From: a candidate division WOR-3 bacterium
Lineage (GTDB): Bacteria; Hydrothermota; Tepidihabitantia; SM23-42
DNA length: 64,000 nt
Assembly (NCBI GenBank): GCA_020353055.1
Contig: CP070686.1
Coordinates: 94,804 to 158,803 of the forward strand
Direction of reading: 5' to 3'
Both the position numbers and the translations under genes were made by a program. The notes under the pieces were generated by a model that ran no database searches, was not told where the DNA came from, and saw only the letters and a list, made by a program, of their open reading frames with translations. Each line of letters opens with the position of its first letter. Within the stretch, counting starts at the first letter, position 1. This document shows positions 20,047 to 32,169 of this stretch, in pieces.

Positions 20047-21747
20047 CTAATCGGGACCACTCAACATGAGCATTTTTGCCAATTTGAGAGGAATTGAACC
20101 GTGACCGAGTAATTCGTCATGAAATTTTTTCAGATCAAAATTATTACCTCTCAATTCTCTGTATTCTTCCAGCAGATCCTGTATCTGTAATTTGCCAACC
20201 AGATAACTTGATGGCTGTATCGGATTACTGATATATCTCTTGATCTCGCGCGCGTAATATGCTTCACTGCCGCCGAAAGTATCAACCATGAACCGCAAAG
20301 CATCTCCATAACTGAAAGCACCTGTCTGTAATTTAACATCGACGATGATACGCGCTGCCCTGTATCTCACACCTTCCAGTGCGTTGATCAGAGCACCGAT
20401 CGTATCTTCGTAAAGGCCGCTTCTCGCCATCATCTCCTCACAATAAAGCGCCCAACCTTCAACAAAGAAAAAAGTACGAAAGCCCCTGCGTATGGACGAG
20501 GGATGACTATTCGCGATTGACAATTGAAGGTGGTGACCAGGATATGCCTCGTGGACTGCCGATCCACGAAACCAACGATTATATATGTAGTTATAAAAGT
20601 ATTCTGCATCCTCCAATTCAAATCTTCTCGGAAGGGGCGGTGTGTAGAAATAACTCTTCCGGGATCTATCAAACGGACCGGGTGGCATCATGGCCACACC
20701 TGGAATCAACCCTAAAAGGAATGACGGTGTTTCGACGAGCTCGATCTCCCCGATCCACTCTGGTACGGTCACTAATTCCGACCCAGCCACAAATTCCCTT
20801 AAGTCACTCAGTTCCATCTCGCGATATTGCACAACGGACTGCGGCCCAAAATCAGACGGCAGCGTCACCATCTCCTGGCGTGATAGTTCAAGCATATCGC
20901 TTAGGTTATCAATCATAGTAGCAGTCCAGTCGAGGTAGTATGTGCCGATCTTTAGTATGCTGTCTGCGGTTATGTCAACAAGGTGTATGTTGTGTAACTT
21001 GTAGTTGTAGTTATCTTCACCCAGAGCGAACATACCATCCTGGGCCTGGTTTTTCTCCAACCAGTAGGTAAAAACCATCATGGACGCGACCGCTTTCGTT
21101 TTTGCCTGTCGAAATTTAAGCCTACTTTCCTGACTTAATGAATCCTTGTAATATTCAAACATATCTTCAATGAACCGCTCACCCTCGGTCAACTGGTTGA
21201 TCGCCGCATCACACAGGATATATGATGGCTTTTTCAAGTTTTGCCTGGCTGTCTCGAGGAACAATGGCATCTGATTTAAACGGGCAGTGACCGCTGCCAT
21301 CTTGCGTTGTATCGATTCGGCGTAACGAATCATAATTGCGTGAATACTGACTACACAGGATTGCGAATACAACAGTGGATCGTTTGCGTAGATGTTCGCA
21401 GTTTCGAGGTCGAATATTTCATCATGAAGAGAAGCTCGTAGCAGGTGGTAATCCACCCGTTCTTCAACCGAAAGGACAAGCGTATCCAGAGCGCTGAGTT
21501 CGCTTTGAAGCTGCTTAAACCTGCTCAATTTCCATTTAAGTGTCTTATTGGAATAATCCGGCATATTTGTATCGTGTTTATGAACACCTAAATTCGTGGC
21601 GGCGATGGGATGAAAACTCCATATCTCCTCCAGGATCTCCGTTGCCAGCGAGTCAAGCTCTGGAGACCCTGCTGCCGAGGTTATGGAGACCAGCAAAATG
21701 CCAAGTATCATTAGGGTAATTTTCATGTAATGATAGTAACTGGACAA
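20047..21747 (-). CDS. DUF885 family protein (putative metallopeptidase-like), secreted
   Basis: Signal peptide. HEAYPGHHLQ motif characteristic of DUF885. Paralog of the gene at 29005..30627. Confidence 0.65.
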   Translation of the reverse strand: MSSYYHYMKITLMILGILLVSITSAAGSPELDSLATEILEEIWSFHPIAATNLGVHKHDTNMPDYSNKTLKWKLSRFKQLQSELSALDTLVLSVEERVDYHLLRASLHDEIFDLETANIYANDPLLYSQSCVVSIHAIMIRYAESIQRKMAAVTARLNQMPLFLETARQNLKKPSYILCDAAINQLTEGERFIEDMFEYYKDSLSQESRLKFRQAKTKAVASMMVFTYWLEKNQAQDGMFALGEDNYNYKLHNIHLVDITADSILKIGTYYLDWTATMIDNLSDMLELSRQEMVTLPSDFGPQSVVQYREMELSDLREFVAGSELVTVPEWIGEIELVETPSFLLGLIPGVAMMPPGPFDRSRKSYFYTPPLPRRFELEDAEYFYNYIYNRWFRGSAVHEAYPGHHLQLSIANSHPSSIRRGFRTFFFVEGWALYCEEMMARSGLYEDTIGALINALEGVRYRAARIIVDVKLQTGAFSYGDALRFMVDTFGGSEAYYAREIKRYISNPIQPSSYLVGKLQIQDLLEEYRELRGNNFDLKKFHDELLGHGSIPLKLAKMLMLSGPD

Positions 21748-24554: not shown

Positions 24555-25133
24555 TTAGAAATTCTCCGCGAGCACCTCGTAGAATGATTCCGGGTGCTTA
24601 CAGGCAGGGCACTCTTTGGGCGGCTCCGTACCTTCATGCACGTACCCACAATTCCTACAGTGCCATTTTACCGCTGTCTTTTTCTTGAAAACCTCTTTAT
24701 TCGCAACATTCTCTATTAGCTTTCTGTAGCGCGACTCATGGAATTTTTCAACCTTCGCGATCTGCTCGAAAGAATTTGCAATATCATCGAAACCCTCTTC
24801 CTTCGCCACTCTGGCAAAATCCGCATAGATGGTAGTCCATTCCATTTTCTCACCCGCTGCCGCTGCTTCAAGATTCGCTTTCGTATCACCGATAACTCCT
24901 GCCGGATATCCGGCAGTGATTTCAACATCACCACCTTCGAGATGTTTGAAAAACACCTTGGCATGTTCCTTTTCATTGTCGGCAGTTTCAAGGAAGATCG
25001 CACTGATCTGTTCAAACCCTTCCTTACGTGCCTTTGAAGCAAAATAAGTGTAACGGTTTCTTGCTTGCGACTCGCCGGCAAAAGAAGCCAGTAAATTCTT
25101 CTCGGTCTTTGTGCCTTTTATTGATTTACCCAT
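24555..25133 (-). CDS. rbr: Rubrerythrin
   Basis: Ferritin-like diiron ExxH motifs plus a C-terminal rubredoxin-like CxxC...CxxC (CRNCGYVHEG...CPACKHP). AAGGAGG ribosome-binding site. Confidence 0.9.
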   Translation of the reverse strand: MGKSIKGTKTEKNLLASFAGESQARNRYTYFASKARKEGFEQISAIFLETADNEKEHAKVFFKHLEGGDVEITAGYPAGVIGDTKANLEAAAAGEKMEWTTIYADFARVAKEEGFDDIANSFEQIAKVEKFHESRYRKLIENVANKEVFKKKTAVKWHCRNCGYVHEGTEPPKECPACKHPESFYEVLAENF

Positions 25134-25698: not shown

Positions 25699-26235
25699 AT
25701 GAAGGCGGATCGGAAAAAAGAATTGTATTCGCTTTGGCTCATGCCTGCCGGAGAAATCGCGGACCGGCTACAAGCCATGATCATACGATTCAGTCACGAA
25801 CACTCGACGCCCAAATTCAAGCCACATGTTACATTGATCGGAGAATTGAACATCCGTGAAGCCACCGCCATCGCCAGGACACGCGAACTGGCATCGCAGA
25901 TCGAACCATTTATCATCACGCTGGGTGAGGTTACTCATCTTAACCGCTACTTCAGATGCGTTTTCATCAAAGCAGAAAAGACGCCAGAATTGATGAATGC
26001 GCATTCAATCGCACGGGGGGTTTTTGGACAGAAAGACGTAGAAATATATCTGCCACATCTGAGTCTGGTATATGGGGACTTAAACTTTCGAGCAAGGCAG
26101 AGTGTAATCCGCTGCACAGGTCATACGATGAAAATCGAATTTTCTGTAAGAGAAATCTTTCTTTATTACACAGGCGGTATACCAAGAGACTGGCATTGCG
26201 TATCAAGGATGCCGAACGGCCGCAGCATTCGGTAA
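25699..26235 (+). CDS. 2H phosphoesterase superfamily protein (cyclic phosphodiesterase/CPDase-like)
   Basis: Two HxT/SxL motifs (HVTLIG and HLSLVY). N-terminus KELYSLWLMP resembles CPDase family proteins. Confidence 0.65.
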   Translation: MKADRKKELYSLWLMPAGEIADRLQAMIIRFSHEHSTPKFKPHVTLIGELNIREATAIARTRELASQIEPFIITLGEVTHLNRYFRCVFIKAEKTPELMNAHSIARGVFGQKDVEIYLPHLSLVYGDLNFRARQSVIRCTGHTMKIEFSVREIFLYYTGGIPRDWHCVSRMPNGRSIR

Positions 26236-26313
26236 ATCAAGTACAGGCATCCAAGATCACGAGCCCCTGGTTCATAGAATATCATATTCTACAGAGTCGT
26301 AATTCAGATCACA

Positions 26314-27720
26314 TCAACTTATTGTCTTACCGGTCCAGCAATATGTACACAGATTCTTTGCAGGCAGACCGGTCGCTGTCATCATGTCTTCAAGCGTTTG
26401 ATACCTCAACGAGGTGACGTTCAAATCATTCTCCATGGCGGTTATCATCTTTTTGTATTCATCTGAATGAAGATCAAGGTAAGGTTCAACATCATCCAAA
26501 TGTCTTCCATGGAATTGCTTTATTATTCGACGCGCGAACAACTCGTCGAGTTGACGTGTTGAGTAAAGAAATTTGCACGGAAACATGAGGGGCGGGCAGG
26601 CAGGACGAACGTGTACTTCTCTTGCTCCGGCGTTCCAGAGTTTCACTAGCAAATAGTTTTTCAACTGAGTGCCGCGCACAATTGAATCTTCGGTTATCAC
26701 CATTCTCTGGTCCTTTATCAGAACATCGGCCGTGATCTGCTTCATCAAAGCAATTAGATCTCTCGTCTCTTGCGCGGGTGGTACGTAGCTTCTCGCCCAG
26801 CCAGGAGTATACTTGAGAAGAGGGATCTTAACCGGCACGCCCGATTCATGCGAATAACCGTGTGCATACGCCGTTCCTGAATCAGCGATGCCGGCAACGA
26901 AATCAACACGGGCACTATCATTCTTAGCGATGATCCTACCCGACTTCTCCCTGAAAGCTTCAACATTCTCACCTTCATATTCAGACGCCGGGAATCCCGC
27001 ATAGACGAACAAGAAAGTACATAATTGCAGAACGTCATTCGGCCGCCTCAATTGAGTGTATCCCGTGGAGTCCAACAGGACAATCTCACCCGAGCCCAAA
27101 TCTCTTTCGGTCACGAAACCGAGGTTCTTATATGAACACGTCTCAGTGGCGACAAACCAGGCCCCGTCTCTTTTGGCCAGAACAAGCGGCGTGCGTCCGT
27201 ACTTATCACGGGCCGCATAAATACCCTCTCTTCCCAGCAGTAACAGAGACATAGACCCGTCTATTTGTTCATGCATGTAATCGATCCCTTCAACCAGGGT
27301 CTTGCCTTTGTTTATCAATTTTGCTGCTAGTTCGATCTGATTCACTTTGCCACCAGGCATTTCAGAAAAAACAACGCCCTCGTCTATCAACCCGGCGGCC
27401 AATTCATCCTGGTTGTTTATATAGCCTGTACCGCACAGCGCATACTCGCCAAACTTTAATCTCATTATGAGCGGCTGTGTGTCCCGGTCGCTTATCACAC
27501 CAATACCGGCATTGCCCCGCATGTTGATGAAATCAATGTCCTCGCTGAAACGAGATTTAAATTGAGCCCTGGCAATACTATGTATTTTCTTTACGAGAAC
27601 CGTGCCGTCTGAGATGGCTATGCCACCGAACGATGTACCCAGATGTGAATGATAGTCGGTCGCATAAAAAAGGTCATCCCTGCAATCTGTATTTGAAACG
27701 ATCCCAACGATCCCACTCAC
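26314..27720 (-). CDS. Amidophosphoribosyltransferase (PurF)-like protein with divergent N-terminal domain (Cys1 replaced by Ser)
   Basis: GTG start after an AAGGAGG ribosome-binding site. The PRTase domain motifs EDSIVRGTQ and VHVRPACPPLMFPC are PurF-like. The N-terminus reads MSGIVGIV instead of MCGIVGI. Confidence 0.7.
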   Translation of the reverse strand: MSGIVGIVSNTDCRDDLFYATDYHSHLGTSFGGIAISDGTVLVKKIHSIARAQFKSRFSEDIDFINMRGNAGIGVISDRDTQPLIMRLKFGEYALCGTGYINNQDELAAGLIDEGVVFSEMPGGKVNQIELAAKLINKGKTLVEGIDYMHEQIDGSMSLLLLGREGIYAARDKYGRTPLVLAKRDGAWFVATETCSYKNLGFVTERDLGSGEIVLLDSTGYTQLRRPNDVLQLCTFLFVYAGFPASEYEGENVEAFREKSGRIIAKNDSARVDFVAGIADSGTAYAHGYSHESGVPVKIPLLKYTPGWARSYVPPAQETRDLIALMKQITADVLIKDQRMVITEDSIVRGTQLKNYLLVKLWNAGAREVHVRPACPPLMFPCKFLYSTRQLDELFARRIIKQFHGRHLDDVEPYLDLHSDEYKKMITAMENDLNVTSLRYQTLEDMMTATGLPAKNLCTYCWTGKTIS

Positions 27721-27832
27721 TGAGATACCTCCTTTCTATGATCCTCTGAACCCACCGCATAATCCACAATTACTTTTATCCTGGTGGTGTCTATCCTTGG
27801 CAAGCAAGATGCCGAAGGCAATAAGGTAACAT

Positions 27833-27860
27833 ATTATAACTGTGATATTTTTGGGGTCAA
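27833..27860 (-). promoter_or_regulatory. Sigma70-type promoter (TTGACC-N16-TATAAT on the minus strand) for the purF-like gene
   Basis: Found on the reverse complement. It leaves a 5'UTR of about 105 nt. Confidence 0.4.
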
Positions 27861-28834: not shown

Positions 28835-29004
28835 TTACTCCTGAGTCCCATCCGGAAAATTCTATATTTGAAACGGCTGCTGTCAAGCGCAGTGTTTTGG
28901 ATGAATGTTGAACTTGACAACTGGAAGCAGGTGCATATTCTATATAGTGGCAAATCTGATAGTATAAGATCGCATACTCATTGACAGACAGAATAGGAGG
29001 TAAA

Positions 29005-30627
29005 ATGTCTCAATTCACGAATTTCGTCGAAAAATATCTCGAATTCAGCTGGAAGACATCACCGATCAGCGCCACGTACGCCGGTATTCATAAGTATGAT
29101 CATGAATTGGATAACGTGGAGAGCGATTTCATACAGGACATTACCAAGAAAAGAAAGGAATATCTCGATGAGCTCGAGGGCATGCCAAGCCAAGAATTGA
29201 GCGGCGAAGACCGAATTGATTGGCAACTACTGAGAAATGATATTGAATCCAGCATAAAGGATTACGAAGAAATCAGATTCTGGAAAAAACAAGCAGCATA
29301 TTACCCAGAACTGTGCGCACATGCAATGTTTATCCTGTCGGTAAGAGAATTTGCACCGCTCGGGGAGCGTTCATCGGCAATACTCTCCAGAATGCGCCAG
29401 GTCCCGCACGTCCTCAAAGAGGGCATCAAGAATCTCGACGATTGCCCGCGGTTGTTCGTAACCCTGGGTATGGAAATGACCAACGCCTGCATTTCCTTTA
29501 TCGAAGACCTTACACCAGGACTCATAAATAGTATTCCCGGATTAAAGAAAAAAATTGAAGACGCAAGCAGAGAAGCCATATCCGCGTTGCAGCAATATCG
29601 CCAGCATTTAGAGACCGAGTTATTACAGAAATCAAGGGGCGACTTTGCGATTGGGAGCACACTATTTGATTTTAAACTAAAGAACGACCACATGCTTTCT
29701 TATGATGCGCAGGATATTCTCGAAATAGGACAAGAAACAAAGAAGAAAACCGAAGAAGCCCTCAGACAGGCCGCGCACGCGATTGATTCTAATAAAGATT
29801 GGTTCGATGTTGTAGGTGACATTAAGAGAGAACACCCGCAAGCATCTGAGCTCCTGCAGACATACAAAAGAGAAATGGAATCTGCCAGGAGATTCGTAAT
29901 CGACAAAGATCTGGTTACCGTTCCTCCTGATGAACATCTGAATGTCATACCAACTCCTTCTTTCAGCCAGCCTATTATTCCATACGCTGCATACATGAAC
30001 CCGGCGCAATTCGAAGAACAGCAGACCGGCCATTTCTATGTCACCCTGGTCGATGAACGGCTGTCCCAGGAACAAAAAGAAGAGATACTCAGAGGCCATC
30101 CAAAATTCGGGATACCGGTCATAGCCCTACATGAAGGATACCCCGGTCACCACCTCCAACTTGTTATCGCCAACAAACTAAAAAACCGACTGAGACGGCT
30201 CCTCGAAACAACGGTCTTCATCGAAGGCTGGGCACTCTACTGCGAAGAAATGATGTACGAAGCAGGGTTCTATGCTGACCCACGCTCGAGACTGCTACAA
30301 CTAAAAGACCAATTATGGCGTGCTTGCCGGGTCATTATCGATGTTGGATTACATACAAAAACGATGACGTACGATCAGGCCGTCGACTTGCTCGTCAAAG
30401 ATGCAAAACTGGAACGTGTGCACGCTCAAAAGGAAGTAACACGCTACACCCTCACTCCGACCCAACCAATGAGTTACCTGATAGGCAAAAAACAGATACT
30501 CGAGTTGAAAGATGACTATCAGAAAAAAATCGGCAGCCGGTTCAACCTGCGCGAATTCCACGACAAACTGCTGAGTTTTGGCTCGATACCTGTATGTTTG
30601 ATCCGTAAAGAACTTGGATTATACTAA
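29005..30627 (+). CDS. DUF885 family protein, cytoplasmic paralog
   Basis: AGGAGG ribosome-binding site before the internal ATG at 29005. HEGYPGHHLQ motif. No signal peptide. Confidence 0.65.
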   Translation: MSQFTNFVEKYLEFSWKTSPISATYAGIHKYDHELDNVESDFIQDITKKRKEYLDELEGMPSQELSGEDRIDWQLLRNDIESSIKDYEEIRFWKKQAAYYPELCAHAMFILSVREFAPLGERSSAILSRMRQVPHVLKEGIKNLDDCPRLFVTLGMEMTNACISFIEDLTPGLINSIPGLKKKIEDASREAISALQQYRQHLETELLQKSRGDFAIGSTLFDFKLKNDHMLSYDAQDILEIGQETKKKTEEALRQAAHAIDSNKDWFDVVGDIKREHPQASELLQTYKREMESARRFVIDKDLVTVPPDEHLNVIPTPSFSQPIIPYAAYMNPAQFEEQQTGHFYVTLVDERLSQEQKEEILRGHPKFGIPVIALHEGYPGHHLQLVIANKLKNRLRRLLETTVFIEGWALYCEEMMYEAGFYADPRSRLLQLKDQLWRACRVIIDVGLHTKTMTYDQAVDLLVKDAKLERVHAQKEVTRYTLTPTQPMSYLIGKKQILELKDDYQKKIGSRFNLREFHDKLLSFGSIPVCLIRKELGLY

Positions 30628-31182: not shown

Positions 31183-32169
31183 CTATTCGATACCGACGAG
31201 CGATTTCACGTACTGAAGGCGCTCATACAGTTCGGGCATCTCGCTCTCTTTTTGGCTCAACCTGCCCCGGAACTGCGATACAGATTCAAAATGATGTTTC
31301 TTCATCCATGCTTCCAGGTTACTGAGAATATTCGAGAGGTGTCCGATGCCGTGCTTGTATAAAGTTGAACAAACCTGAACCGTCGAGGCACCAGCAAGCA
31401 GCTGTTTGACAACACCTGTAGCATCATGGACACCCGTCGTAGCGGAAAGGTCACAATCAATTCGACCCGCAAGTAGCGAGATCCAGCGTAGTGATACATT
31501 TATTTCTTCAGGCGTACTGAAGTGGTAACCAGGTACCAATGTCAGCTTGTCGATATTGATATCGAGTTGATAAAATCTGTTGAAGAGCACAAGCGCCGAA
31601 GCGCCCCTACTGCAAAGTTGTCGACCGACGGTTGCGAGTGACGTAAAATAGGGGCCGATCTTCACGGCAACGGGTATCTTCACGTTCTTCTTAACACCTT
31701 CCAGAATATCATAGTAGAGTTTCTCAATATCATTACTACTATGCCGCGGGTCGCTCGGCAGGATTGCCATATTAAGTTCAATGCCATCAGCGCCGGATGC
31801 CTCAAGTCTTCCCGCATAGTCTGTCCACCATTCTGGCGTTATGCAATTGAGGCTCGCAATCACCGGCACCGACACTGCTTTCTTCGCACTTTCCACAAGA
31901 TTCAGATAATCTTGTTCTCCGGTTTGGAGTCCAATTTGCCGGACGTAATCATATGCCTCAGTGTGCCCTGCAAGCCATACATGTTTTTGTATCTCCTTAG
32001 TGTCAGCCTCGATCTGCTCTTCAAACAATGATTTAAGCACAACCGCACCAGCACCGGCATCCGCACAACGCTGAACACCTTCTACAGAATTCACCAAACT
32101 ACAGCTCGCAACGATTAGCGGATTCCGTAATTCAAGTCCCATATAACTTGTTTTCATATCTGCCATCAA
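31183..32169 (-). CDS. Dihydroorotate dehydrogenase family (DHOD/DHPD-like TIM-barrel) protein
   Basis: GLELRNPLIVASC...NCITPEW...KIGP; FMN-binding TIM-barrel family pattern. Confidence 0.55.
   Translation of the reverse strand: MMADMKTSYMGLELRNPLIVASCSLVNSVEGVQRCADAGAGAVVLKSLFEEQIEADTKEIQKHVWLAGHTEAYDYVRQIGLQTGEQDYLNLVESAKKAVSVPVIASLNCITPEWWTDYAGRLEASGADGIELNMAILPSDPRHSSNDIEKLYYDILEGVKKNVKIPVAVKIGPYFTSLATVGRQLCSRGASALVLFNRFYQLDINIDKLTLVPGYHFSTPEEINVSLRWISLLAGRIDCDLSATTGVHDATGVVKQLLAGASTVQVCSTLYKHGIGHLSNILSNLEAWMKKHHFESVSQFRGRLSQKESEMPELYERLQYVKSLVGIE

Follow-up and report, generated by a model that had tools for sequence, protein, structure and literature searches.

What might a PurF-type protein do once its catalytic N-terminal cysteine has been replaced? 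This question is raised by a single gene in a 64,000-nucleotide stretch of DNA from a candidate division WOR-3 bacterium (contig CP070686.1, positions 94,804 to 158,803), which was analysed as a whole and is called the window in what follows. The encoded protein begins with (M)SGIVGIVSN and contains HLGTSFGGIA, EDSIVRGTQ and VHVRPACPPLMFPC, all of them elements that an initial annotation had correctly pointed out. That annotation proposed a glutaminase-dead paralogue of PurF rather than the housekeeping enzyme, with ammonia dependence, a serine nucleophile or a non-catalytic role as options. What the gene encodes is secure: an Fe-S-type paralogue of PurF with a dead glutaminase, whose conserved family is linked to de novo purine synthesis. 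As to its function, we think it most probable, with roughly an even chance of being right, that the family resembles the crenarchaeal PurF′ and acts in this pathway as an ammonia-dependent phosphoribosyl pyrophosphate (PRPP) aminotransferase. We call the family PurF* (a name coined here) and define it by the pattern M-[S/G]-G...GTDYHSHLGT...(D/E)DSIVRGTQL...CxYCW.

The window protein lies outside the curated PurF equivalog: it lacks Cys1 and the glutamine site, and it scores 175 bits against the NCBIfam model TIGR01134 (purF, EC 2.4.2.14), the cutoff of which is 350. Six other PurF* members score between 179 and 212 bits, while four canonical PurFs whose genes neighbour those of family members reach 430 to 521. 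These scores, together with the frequent adjacency of family members to a genuine Cys-PurF, bear out the proposal that this is not the housekeeping purF. The only Pfam match in the protein is GATase_7.

The extent of the loss became clear from an alignment of 15 canonical PurFs, 96 PurF* family members and PurF from Bacillus subtilis, whose numbering is used for the lost residues. Cys1 is retained in none of the family members, Arg26 is replaced by Leu in 91% of them (Leu27 in the window protein), Gln28 has become Thr and His70 Val, and the glutamine loop that contains R72, Y73, T75 and G77 is deleted in 100%. Asn102, at the oxyanion position, is kept in only 11% (the window protein has Thr98, with the adjacent Gly kept), and D127 is not conserved. 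In all, the N-terminal domain keeps 21 of the 42 positions conserved in canonical PurF, among them the Gly and Pro residues with a structural role in the N-terminal nucleophile (Ntn) fold, while the catalytic and glutamine-binding positions are all lost. Since Cys1, the oxyanion Asn and every glutamine-binding residue are gone, glutamine hydrolysis should not be possible for PurF*. The Ntn domain thus survives as a fold, with a dead glutaminase, and on this central point the alignment agrees with the initial annotation. Where canonical PurF has the pocket loop LQHRGQ, the family has a signature of its own in which D22, Y23, H24, S25, H26, L27 and T29 are 88 to 100% conserved and, with the exception of H26, differ from canonical PurF. 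Other highly conserved family-specific residues are H47, F54, N127 and Gln352.

The phosphoribosyltransferase (PRTase) domain keeps 26 of 41 canonical-conserved positions. In B. subtilis numbering, the retained residues include D346, S347, V349, R350 and G351 of the PRPP loop, S283, R259, H370 and R372, and, in 100% of PurF*, R311, R321 and K328 of the flexible loop. Counted in the window protein, K303, R310, S311, R320 and K327 of that loop are invariant in the family alignment A1, and D345, S346, R349, G350, R310, R320, K327, S281 and R257 are 99 to 100% conserved across bacterial and archaeal members. The catalytic residues of this domain are under strong purifying selection. The window protein also has all four Cys positions of the Fe-S subclass of PurF (B. 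subtilis type), counterparts of Cys236, Cys382, Cys437 and Cys440, which we take to be the [4Fe-4S] ligands in the B. subtilis enzyme (1GPH/1AO0); in alignment A1, C461 is invariant and C458 at least 90% conserved. Overall, the PRPP loop, the Lys/Arg residues of the flexible loop and these four cysteines reach a conservation of 97% or more.

The predicted structure is in agreement with this picture. The AlphaFold2 model of the window protein is of high quality (predicted local distance difference test 93.4, predicted template-modelling score 0.91), and its similarity to PurF covers both the Ntn and the PRTase domains. With Foldseek, the best match in the PDB is B. subtilis PurF (1ao0; template-modelling score, TM, 0.84/0.87; 24% identity), and the B. 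subtilis, Arabidopsis and Escherichia coli PurFs are found at TM 0.80-0.87 and 20-25% identity, with the E. coli enzyme at about 0.8.

Could the missing cysteine be an artefact, that is, a housekeeping purF in which a sequencing error turned TGT into AGT or in which the start was mis-called? The two codons do differ by one substitution, and the initial annotation had itself named an error of this kind as a possible objection, but a protein with 100% identity is encoded both in an NCBI genome labelled "candidate division WOR-3 bacterium" and in a Logan assembly that is independent of it. Furthermore, Ser is found at position 2 in 115 of 115 homologues of at least 74% identity from independent assemblies, these 115 being the ones among 120 listed homologues whose N-terminus fitted the family pattern. 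Around 20 further N-domain positions that are conserved in canonical PurF are changed too, and the TIGR01134 score is half of the cutoff. The start is equally well defined, as the sequence leading into it reads ...TAG AAA GGA GGT ATC TCA GTG AGT GGG ATC..., with the GTG codon, the AAGGAGG motif 7 nt upstream and the preceding in-frame stop just as first described; only the codon of Ser2 had been misread, since it is AGT, and the TCA cited for it encodes Ser9. Several archaeal "Cys-less" PurF calls have been traced to N-terminal extensions (Brown et al. 2011, PMC3261824). Here, the in-frame TAG six codons upstream means that no Cys-bearing extension or propeptide is possible. A sequencing error or wrong start is excluded by the upstream stop, the independent assemblies and the unanimous Ser, and the probability that we attach to an artefact is practically nil.

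It was also suggested that Ser2 might serve as an alternative N-terminal nucleophile, in which case the protein would be a Ser-type Ntn hydrolase and still an amidotransferase for glutamine or another amide. The strict conservation of Ser in the WOR-3 clade would agree with this, as would its exposure by Met excision and the oxyanion-position Asn kept in some members of the "MSG" subclade. Across the family, however, residue 2 is Gly in 35, Ser in 22, Thr in 4, Ala in 3 and Asp in 1 of the representatives of 50%-identity clusters, and Gly in 34, Ser in 29, Val in 1 and Thr in 1 of 65 GTDB species loci, while Cys was found at this position in no PurF* member examined. Given that residue 2 varies among G, S, T, A, D and V, with Gly as frequent as Ser, the serine is no conserved nucleophile. 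The codons point the same way: Ser is encoded by AGY in 39 of 39 cases and Gly mostly by GGY, each one step from the Cys codon TGY and a single transition apart from each other. Moreover, the window protein has Thr98 in place of the Asn, the glutamine-binding Arg26, the Arg72/Tyr73 loop and Asp127 are all lost, and the E. coli PurF variant C1S is, as cited in PMC3261824, without glutamine-dependent activity. Family variation and codon analysis rule out this role for Ser2, and we consider it extremely improbable. Ser2 is rather one of several small residues tolerated at this position, a lineage-specific neutral choice and not a catalytic substitution; a small residue here is compatible with Met excision and packing.

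PurF* is a very large and ancient family. A search with the window protein at E ≤ 1e-30 gave 499 clusters at 50% identity, a count that takes in canonical PurFs too, and the motif [DE]DS[IL][VR]RGTQL has at least 600 matches among the bacterial and archaeal species genomes of GTDB. Most of the organisms among the matches listed are anaerobes (WOR-3, Omnitrophota, Desulfobacterota, Planctomycetota, Lachnospiraceae, Treponema, Bacteroidales, Asgard, Hadarchaeota). Members are encoded in the genomes of named Parabacteroides and Dysgonomonas isolates and in metagenome-assembled genomes of Prevotella, Lachnospiraceae and Treponema. A neighbour-joining tree without support values separates canonical PurF (C-HRGQ-NG-D), several intermediate or Cys-less groups and the GTDYHSHLGT family. 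Within the latter, an "MGG" subclade contains Lachnospiraceae, Treponema, Bacteroidales, Desulfobacterales and Asgard archaea, and the "MSG" subclade contains Omnitrophota, Planctomycetota, Syntrophia and WOR-3/Stahlbacteria. The window protein, which carries DYHSHLGT, RGTQL and CTYCW, groups with the "MSG" sequences in the leaf order of this unsupported tree. Source databases label PurF* "amidophosphoribosyltransferase", that is, the ordinary enzyme. The initial annotation allowed for an already characterised family with a different conserved nucleophile; residue 2 is variable, and no characterisation of PurF* was found in the open-access full-text literature. Pertinent results there were limited to the note on PurF′ (PMC3261824) and to the NH3-dependent activity of PRPP amidotransferase (PMC12017579).

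To place the family in a pathway, we surveyed 80 GTDB loci, identifying recurrent neighbours through all-against-all clustering and checking them with Pfam. Contexts vary in most loci, and the recurrent neighbours are purine genes, which lie near PurF* in 13 of the 80. In 12 of these, PurF* directly adjoins purB, purM, purD, purQ or canonical purF, and in the remaining one (L031) guaA-purF is found at a distance of 5 kb. PurF* is the sole PurF-type gene of the pur cluster in three cases, namely two Omnitrophota (L011 and L012, with purB-purL-LOG-(purQ)-PurF*-purM...purD-purE) and a member of Hadarchaeota (L025, with purD-PurF*...purB-purM-purL-purQ). Elsewhere, the arrangement is purL-purQ-purF(canonical)-PurF* with a gap of 34 nt (Omnitrophota, L008), purF(canonical)-purM-PurF* (Planctomycetota, L013, L017 and L018), purC-purF(canonical)-purB-PurF* (a Bacillota genome, L079) or purB-PurF* (L038 and L077), and in the Asgard archaea L037 and L046 canonical purF and PurF* lie tail to tail. 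A canonical Cys-PurF is encoded within 10 kb in 8 of the 80 loci, in five of them (L008, L013, L017, L018 and L079) in the same apparent operon.

A further recurrent neighbour is carB, linked to PurF* in six loci: on the same strand and 4-28 nt away in L003, L036, L039 and L069, beyond a DUF1846 gene in L031, and divergent with a small open reading frame (ORF) between in L050. carA and carB are normally adjacent, and no CarA-type motif was found within roughly ±10 kb of these six loci. A DUF1846/DUF1846_C gene of about 500 aa adjoins PurF* in 5 of the 80 loci, twice with carB as well, and this adjacency may reflect a functional link to nucleotide metabolism. DUF1846 has been listed as an essential Clostridioides difficile gene whose function is unknown (PMC12157513). 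Between purL and purQ/PurF*, the purine operon of Omnitrophota contains a gene of the LOG family (Pfam Lysine_decarbox/SLOG, nucleotide phosphoribohydrolase-like). In one Parabacteroides locus only, the same-strand genes after PurF* encode an M20 peptidase and GcvT; the latter is the ammonia-releasing aminomethyltransferase of glycine cleavage.

How does PurF* compare with known systems? B. subtilis PurF (1AO0/1GPH) and Arabidopsis ASE2 (6LBP) have the same length and the same architecture of an Ntn domain followed by a type I PRTase. With Fe-S-type PurF, PurF* shares the four Cys positions, the PRPP loop and the flexible loop (TM 0.84-0.87, phmmer E = 1.5e-38), and it differs through the losses described above, the replacement of the PRPP-loop Thr by Gln and the TIGR01134 score; a true PurF is often co-encoded. 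The closest published concept is the crenarchaeal PurF′, a Cys-less PurF paralogue near purF and other pur genes, for which the role of an ammonia-dependent PRPP aminotransferase has been proposed (Brown et al. 2011, Biol Direct 6:63; PMC3261824). Compared by description alone, PurF′ and PurF* both lack the N-terminal Cys and lie near pur genes, but PurF′ has been described in Crenarchaeota only and has Ala or Val at position 2, whereas PurF* is mainly bacterial, with members in Asgard, Hadarchaeota, Altiarchaeota and Thermoplasmatota, and has Ser or Gly. The initial annotation mentioned neither this precedent nor the [4Fe-4S] ligands and the size of the family. As cited in PMC3261824, E. coli PurF mutants in Cys1 lose the glutamine-dependent reaction and keep the NH3-dependent one (Mei & Zalkin 1989), which makes them a functional model for a natural Cys-less PurF. 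These mutants carry engineered point changes, with the glutamine site and channel otherwise intact, whereas in PurF* the pocket is remodelled and the glutamine loop deleted. AsnB/AsnA and the glutamine- and NH3-dependent forms of NadE illustrate the same logic as that proposed for PurF and PurF*, with one step served either by an amidotransferase or by an ammonia-using enzyme in organisms exposed to high ammonium. In those pairs, however, the NH3 enzyme has no glutaminase domain or is unrelated, while PurF* keeps the dead domain in conserved form.

From these features we infer that PurF* binds an Fe-S cluster, uses PRPP and takes ammonia as its nitrogen donor. PurF* would bind PRPP, and free ammonia would displace pyrophosphate from it to give phosphoribosylamine (PRA), thus giving anaerobes of ammonium-rich habitats a first step of the de novo purine pathway that is independent of glutamine. 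It could work beside the canonical glutamine-dependent PurF or, in some lineages, replace it. We favour ammonia dependence because the PRPP site is intact and the gene occurs in pur operons. Ambient NH3 is also a recognised nitrogen donor for PRPP amidotransferase (PPAT; PMC12017579), and since this use, the behaviour of the E. coli Cys1 mutants and the purifying selection on the PRTase domain agree, the ammonia model is the most economical one. The occupation of the purF slot by PurF* in L011, L012 and L025 fits it, and carB without carA nearby would fit an ammonia-using nucleotide module. Nevertheless, several observations weigh against this model. In the window and in four WOR-3 relatives, PurF* is solitary, in variable surroundings and without pur neighbours. 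A canonical Cys-PurF stands beside it in at least 8 of the 80 loci, 5 of which share an apparent operon, so that a cooperative or heteromeric role with canonical PurF is an alternative; and given that canonical PurF is already NH3-capable, a separate NH3 enzyme would be partly redundant. The remodelled former glutamine pocket (D22, Y23, H24, S25, H26, T29, H47, N127) is strongly conserved, which is not an evident requirement for an enzyme that simply depends on NH3. In canonical PurF, the glutamine loop contributes to the channel for NH3 and provides the coupling between both sites; with this loop deleted and the PRPP-loop Thr changed to an invariant Gln, the substrate or acceptor could differ. 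Finally, a sister Cys-less clade occurs in bacteria of the Candidate Phyla Radiation (CPR).

One rival reading is that PurF* is a pseudoenzyme partner, that is, a non-catalytic or PRPP/nucleotide-sensing subunit that would assemble with canonical PurF into hetero-oligomers and modulate its activity, feedback inhibition or the hand-off of PRA, or that would capture NH3 leaking out of the glutaminase site of its partner. The homotetrameric make-up of PurF, with nucleotide sites between the subunits, would suit such a role. The canonical PurFs encoded within 10 kb, five of them co-operonic, point in this direction, as do the similar crenarchaeal purF/purF′ pairs (PMC3261824) and the proposed intermolecular capture of NH3 from one PPAT by another (PMC12017579). 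However, no canonical PurF is found nearby in 72 of the 80 loci, and three pur clusters hold PurF* alone. In addition, the catalytic residues of the PRPP and flexible loops are near-invariant over two domains of life, and scaffolds usually keep less. We therefore regard a partner of this kind as unlikely.

Alternatively, PurF* could be a neofunctionalised enzyme that transfers the phosphoribosyl group to a nucleophile other than NH3, or one in which a nitrogen donor different from glutamine is bound or cleaved in the N-domain pocket (DYHSH, H47, N127), with a product that does not arise through classical PurF chemistry. The family-specific and highly conserved polar residues that fill the former glutamine pocket, the invariant Thr-to-Gln change, the deleted loop, the recurring links to carB without carA and to DUF1846, and the sister clade carried by CPR genomes are all consistent with this idea. 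Still, classical purine genes are the strongest recurrent context, at the usual position of purF, and the proposal has neither a precedent nor a candidate substrate. Moreover, because about half of the family has Gly2, Ntn-type hydrolysis would be impossible. A new chemistry of this kind seems to us decidedly unlikely. A broader and bolder proposal is that PurF* is a distinct enzyme or an obligate subunit of anaerobic nucleotide metabolism, the pocket (DYHSH, H47, N127) of which binds a new ligand or partner, such as a non-glutamine nitrogen donor, CarB, the DUF1846 protein or canonical PurF, while the Fe-S PRTase domain makes PRA or another phosphoribosyl product by an unmapped route. We offer it with considerable doubt, and an ammonia-dependent PRPP aminotransferase is the function that we prefer.

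Other PurF-like proteins depart from the canonical enzyme in different ways. P0175, P0195, P0208, P0210 and P0240 still have Cys1 and HRGQ but no longer the oxyanion Asn or the glutamine loop with Arg/Tyr; such intermediates suggest a graded decay of the glutaminase site among PurF paralogues. A second Cys-less clade has the pattern M-A-G...FYQQHLGE...DDSIVRGTQ (P0206, P0239, P0244, P0248 and P0252; loci L088 and L089) and occurs in CPR/Parcubacteria, Acidobacteria and Aminicenantes, next to housekeeping genes, with some members annotated "hypothetical protein". Its identity with the crenarchaeal PurF′ was considered and rejected in view of these hosts; the contexts are uninformative. CPR bacteria usually lack de novo purine synthesis, and the role of this "MAG" clade may therefore lie outside the purine pathway.

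At the locus itself, the initial annotation's description of the gene as isolated from other pur genes was accurate: tblastn found no pur gene, carB or second PurF in the 64-kb window, and neither did a Pfam scan of the neighbours between 17.8 and 39.9 kb. Local context was dropped as a functional clue in WOR-3, being variable and uninformative. Two DUF885 paralogues flank the gene, one about 4.6 kb downstream of it and the other 1.3 kb upstream, and a rubrerythrin gene, which hints at an oxygen-sensitive lifestyle, a 2H/CPDase-family gene and a DUF6982 gene lie close by. The only other nucleotide-related hint in the vicinity is a protein 3.5 kb away with a weak match to DHO_dh (dihydroorotate dehydrogenase family, E 2.4e-13). 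The PurF-like gene and the 2H/CPDase gene downstream of it converge, so that the former is a monocistronic unit; the GC content of the PurF-like gene (0.478) is that of the window. A putative promoter implies a 5′ untranslated region (5′UTR) of about 105 nt, and its position is kept in the WOR-3 relatives L001 and L082, where the sequence of the 5′UTR is not conserved. Rfam gave no match at E ≤ 1 for the 5′UTR of the window gene and, at the gathering threshold, no riboswitch or other element upstream of the gene in 20 related loci. A riboswitch or leader RNA was consequently abandoned as a functional clue, given this lack of Rfam matches and the unconserved 5′UTR among WOR-3 relatives. Spurious long ORFs, out of frame or antisense, overlie the PurF* coding sequence in the window, and antisense ORFs of about 520 aa do so in L073 and four other loci (cluster 7). 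Picking the longest ORF gave none at the PurF* match in 9 related loci (e.g., L013, L019 and L073), in at least some of them because of such overlaps, which should serve as a warning for automatic gene calling. Coordinates are collected in Table 1.

Table 1. Positions of the features discussed, in window coordinates unless a GTDB locus (L number) is given
Feature	Position	Strand	Remarks
Coding sequence, Cys-less PurF paralogue	26314..27720	minus	468 aa, GTG start, stop 26314-26316; ORF list
Codon 2, AGT (Ser), site of PurF catalytic Cys1	27715..27717	minus	variable in family
Shine-Dalgarno AAGGAGG	27728..27734	minus	7 nt spacing to GTG
In-frame TAG	27736..27738	minus	six codons 5′ of GTG start
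Putative sigma-70-like promoter TTGACC-16 nt-TATAAT	27833..27860	minus	11/12 match
N-terminal Ntn-fold domain (aa 1-228), degenerate glutaminase	27037..27720	minus	Pfam GATase_7 at aa 76-193
DYHSHLGT (aa 22-29), in place of LQHRGQ glutamine-pocket loop	27634..27657	minus	family signature
PRTase (type I) domain, aa 229-400	26521..27036	minus	alignments to 1ao0 and 6lbp
PRTase flexible loop KYTPGWARSYVPPAQETRDLIALMK, aa 303-327	26740..26814	minus	family alignment
PRPP-binding loop EDSIVRGTQ, aa 344-352	26665..26691	minus	canonical Thr replaced by family-specific Gln352
Cys234, counterpart of B. subtilis Cys236	27019..27021	minus	98% conserved in family
Cys382, counterpart of B. subtilis Cys382	26575..26577	minus	98% conserved in family
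CTYC (Cys458/Cys461), counterparts of B. subtilis Cys437/Cys440 CxxC	26338..26349	minus	C-terminal
Spurious ORF	25956-26417	plus	overlies PurF*
Spurious ORF	26754-27038	minus	overlies PurF*
DUF885 paralogue	20047-21747	minus	566 aa
DUF885 paralogue	28981-30627	plus	548 aa
Rubrerythrin	24555-25133		
2H/CPDase-family gene	25699-26235		
Weak DHO_dh match	31183-32169	minus	328 aa
carB	L003:11480-14713, L036:3378-6587, L039:6796-9996, L050:6136-9351, L069:365-3565, L031:51-1001		
DUF1846	L003:8456-9979, L007:9625-11169, L015:11630-13231, L031:1005-2516, L052:3127-4599		
LOG-family gene	L011:4734-5426, L012:9203-9940		
PurF*, M20 peptidase and GcvT (Parabacteroides)	L086:10001-13786		

PurF, a drug target, is the enzyme of the committed and regulated step in the synthesis of purines. 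A Cys-less PurF would not surprise a specialist in purine enzymes in principle; what is striking is the spread and the mis-annotation of the family, since a glutaminase-dead second PurF-type protein is widespread in both prokaryotic domains, including the gut genera Parabacteroides, Dysgonomonas and Prevotella. If PurF* is an ammonia-dependent PRA synthase, this would change models of nitrogen economy and purine flux in anaerobes, as well as the prediction of auxotrophies from genomes and the reading of genomes with "two purF" genes. If it is instead a partner subunit or a new enzyme, the textbook pathway would gain a component, and the question on archaeal PurF′ left in 2011 would be settled. 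Should it prove to be a distinct enzyme or an obligate subunit, thousands of "amidophosphoribosyltransferase" labels would be functionally wrong, including those in gut Bacteroidales and Lachnospiraceae.

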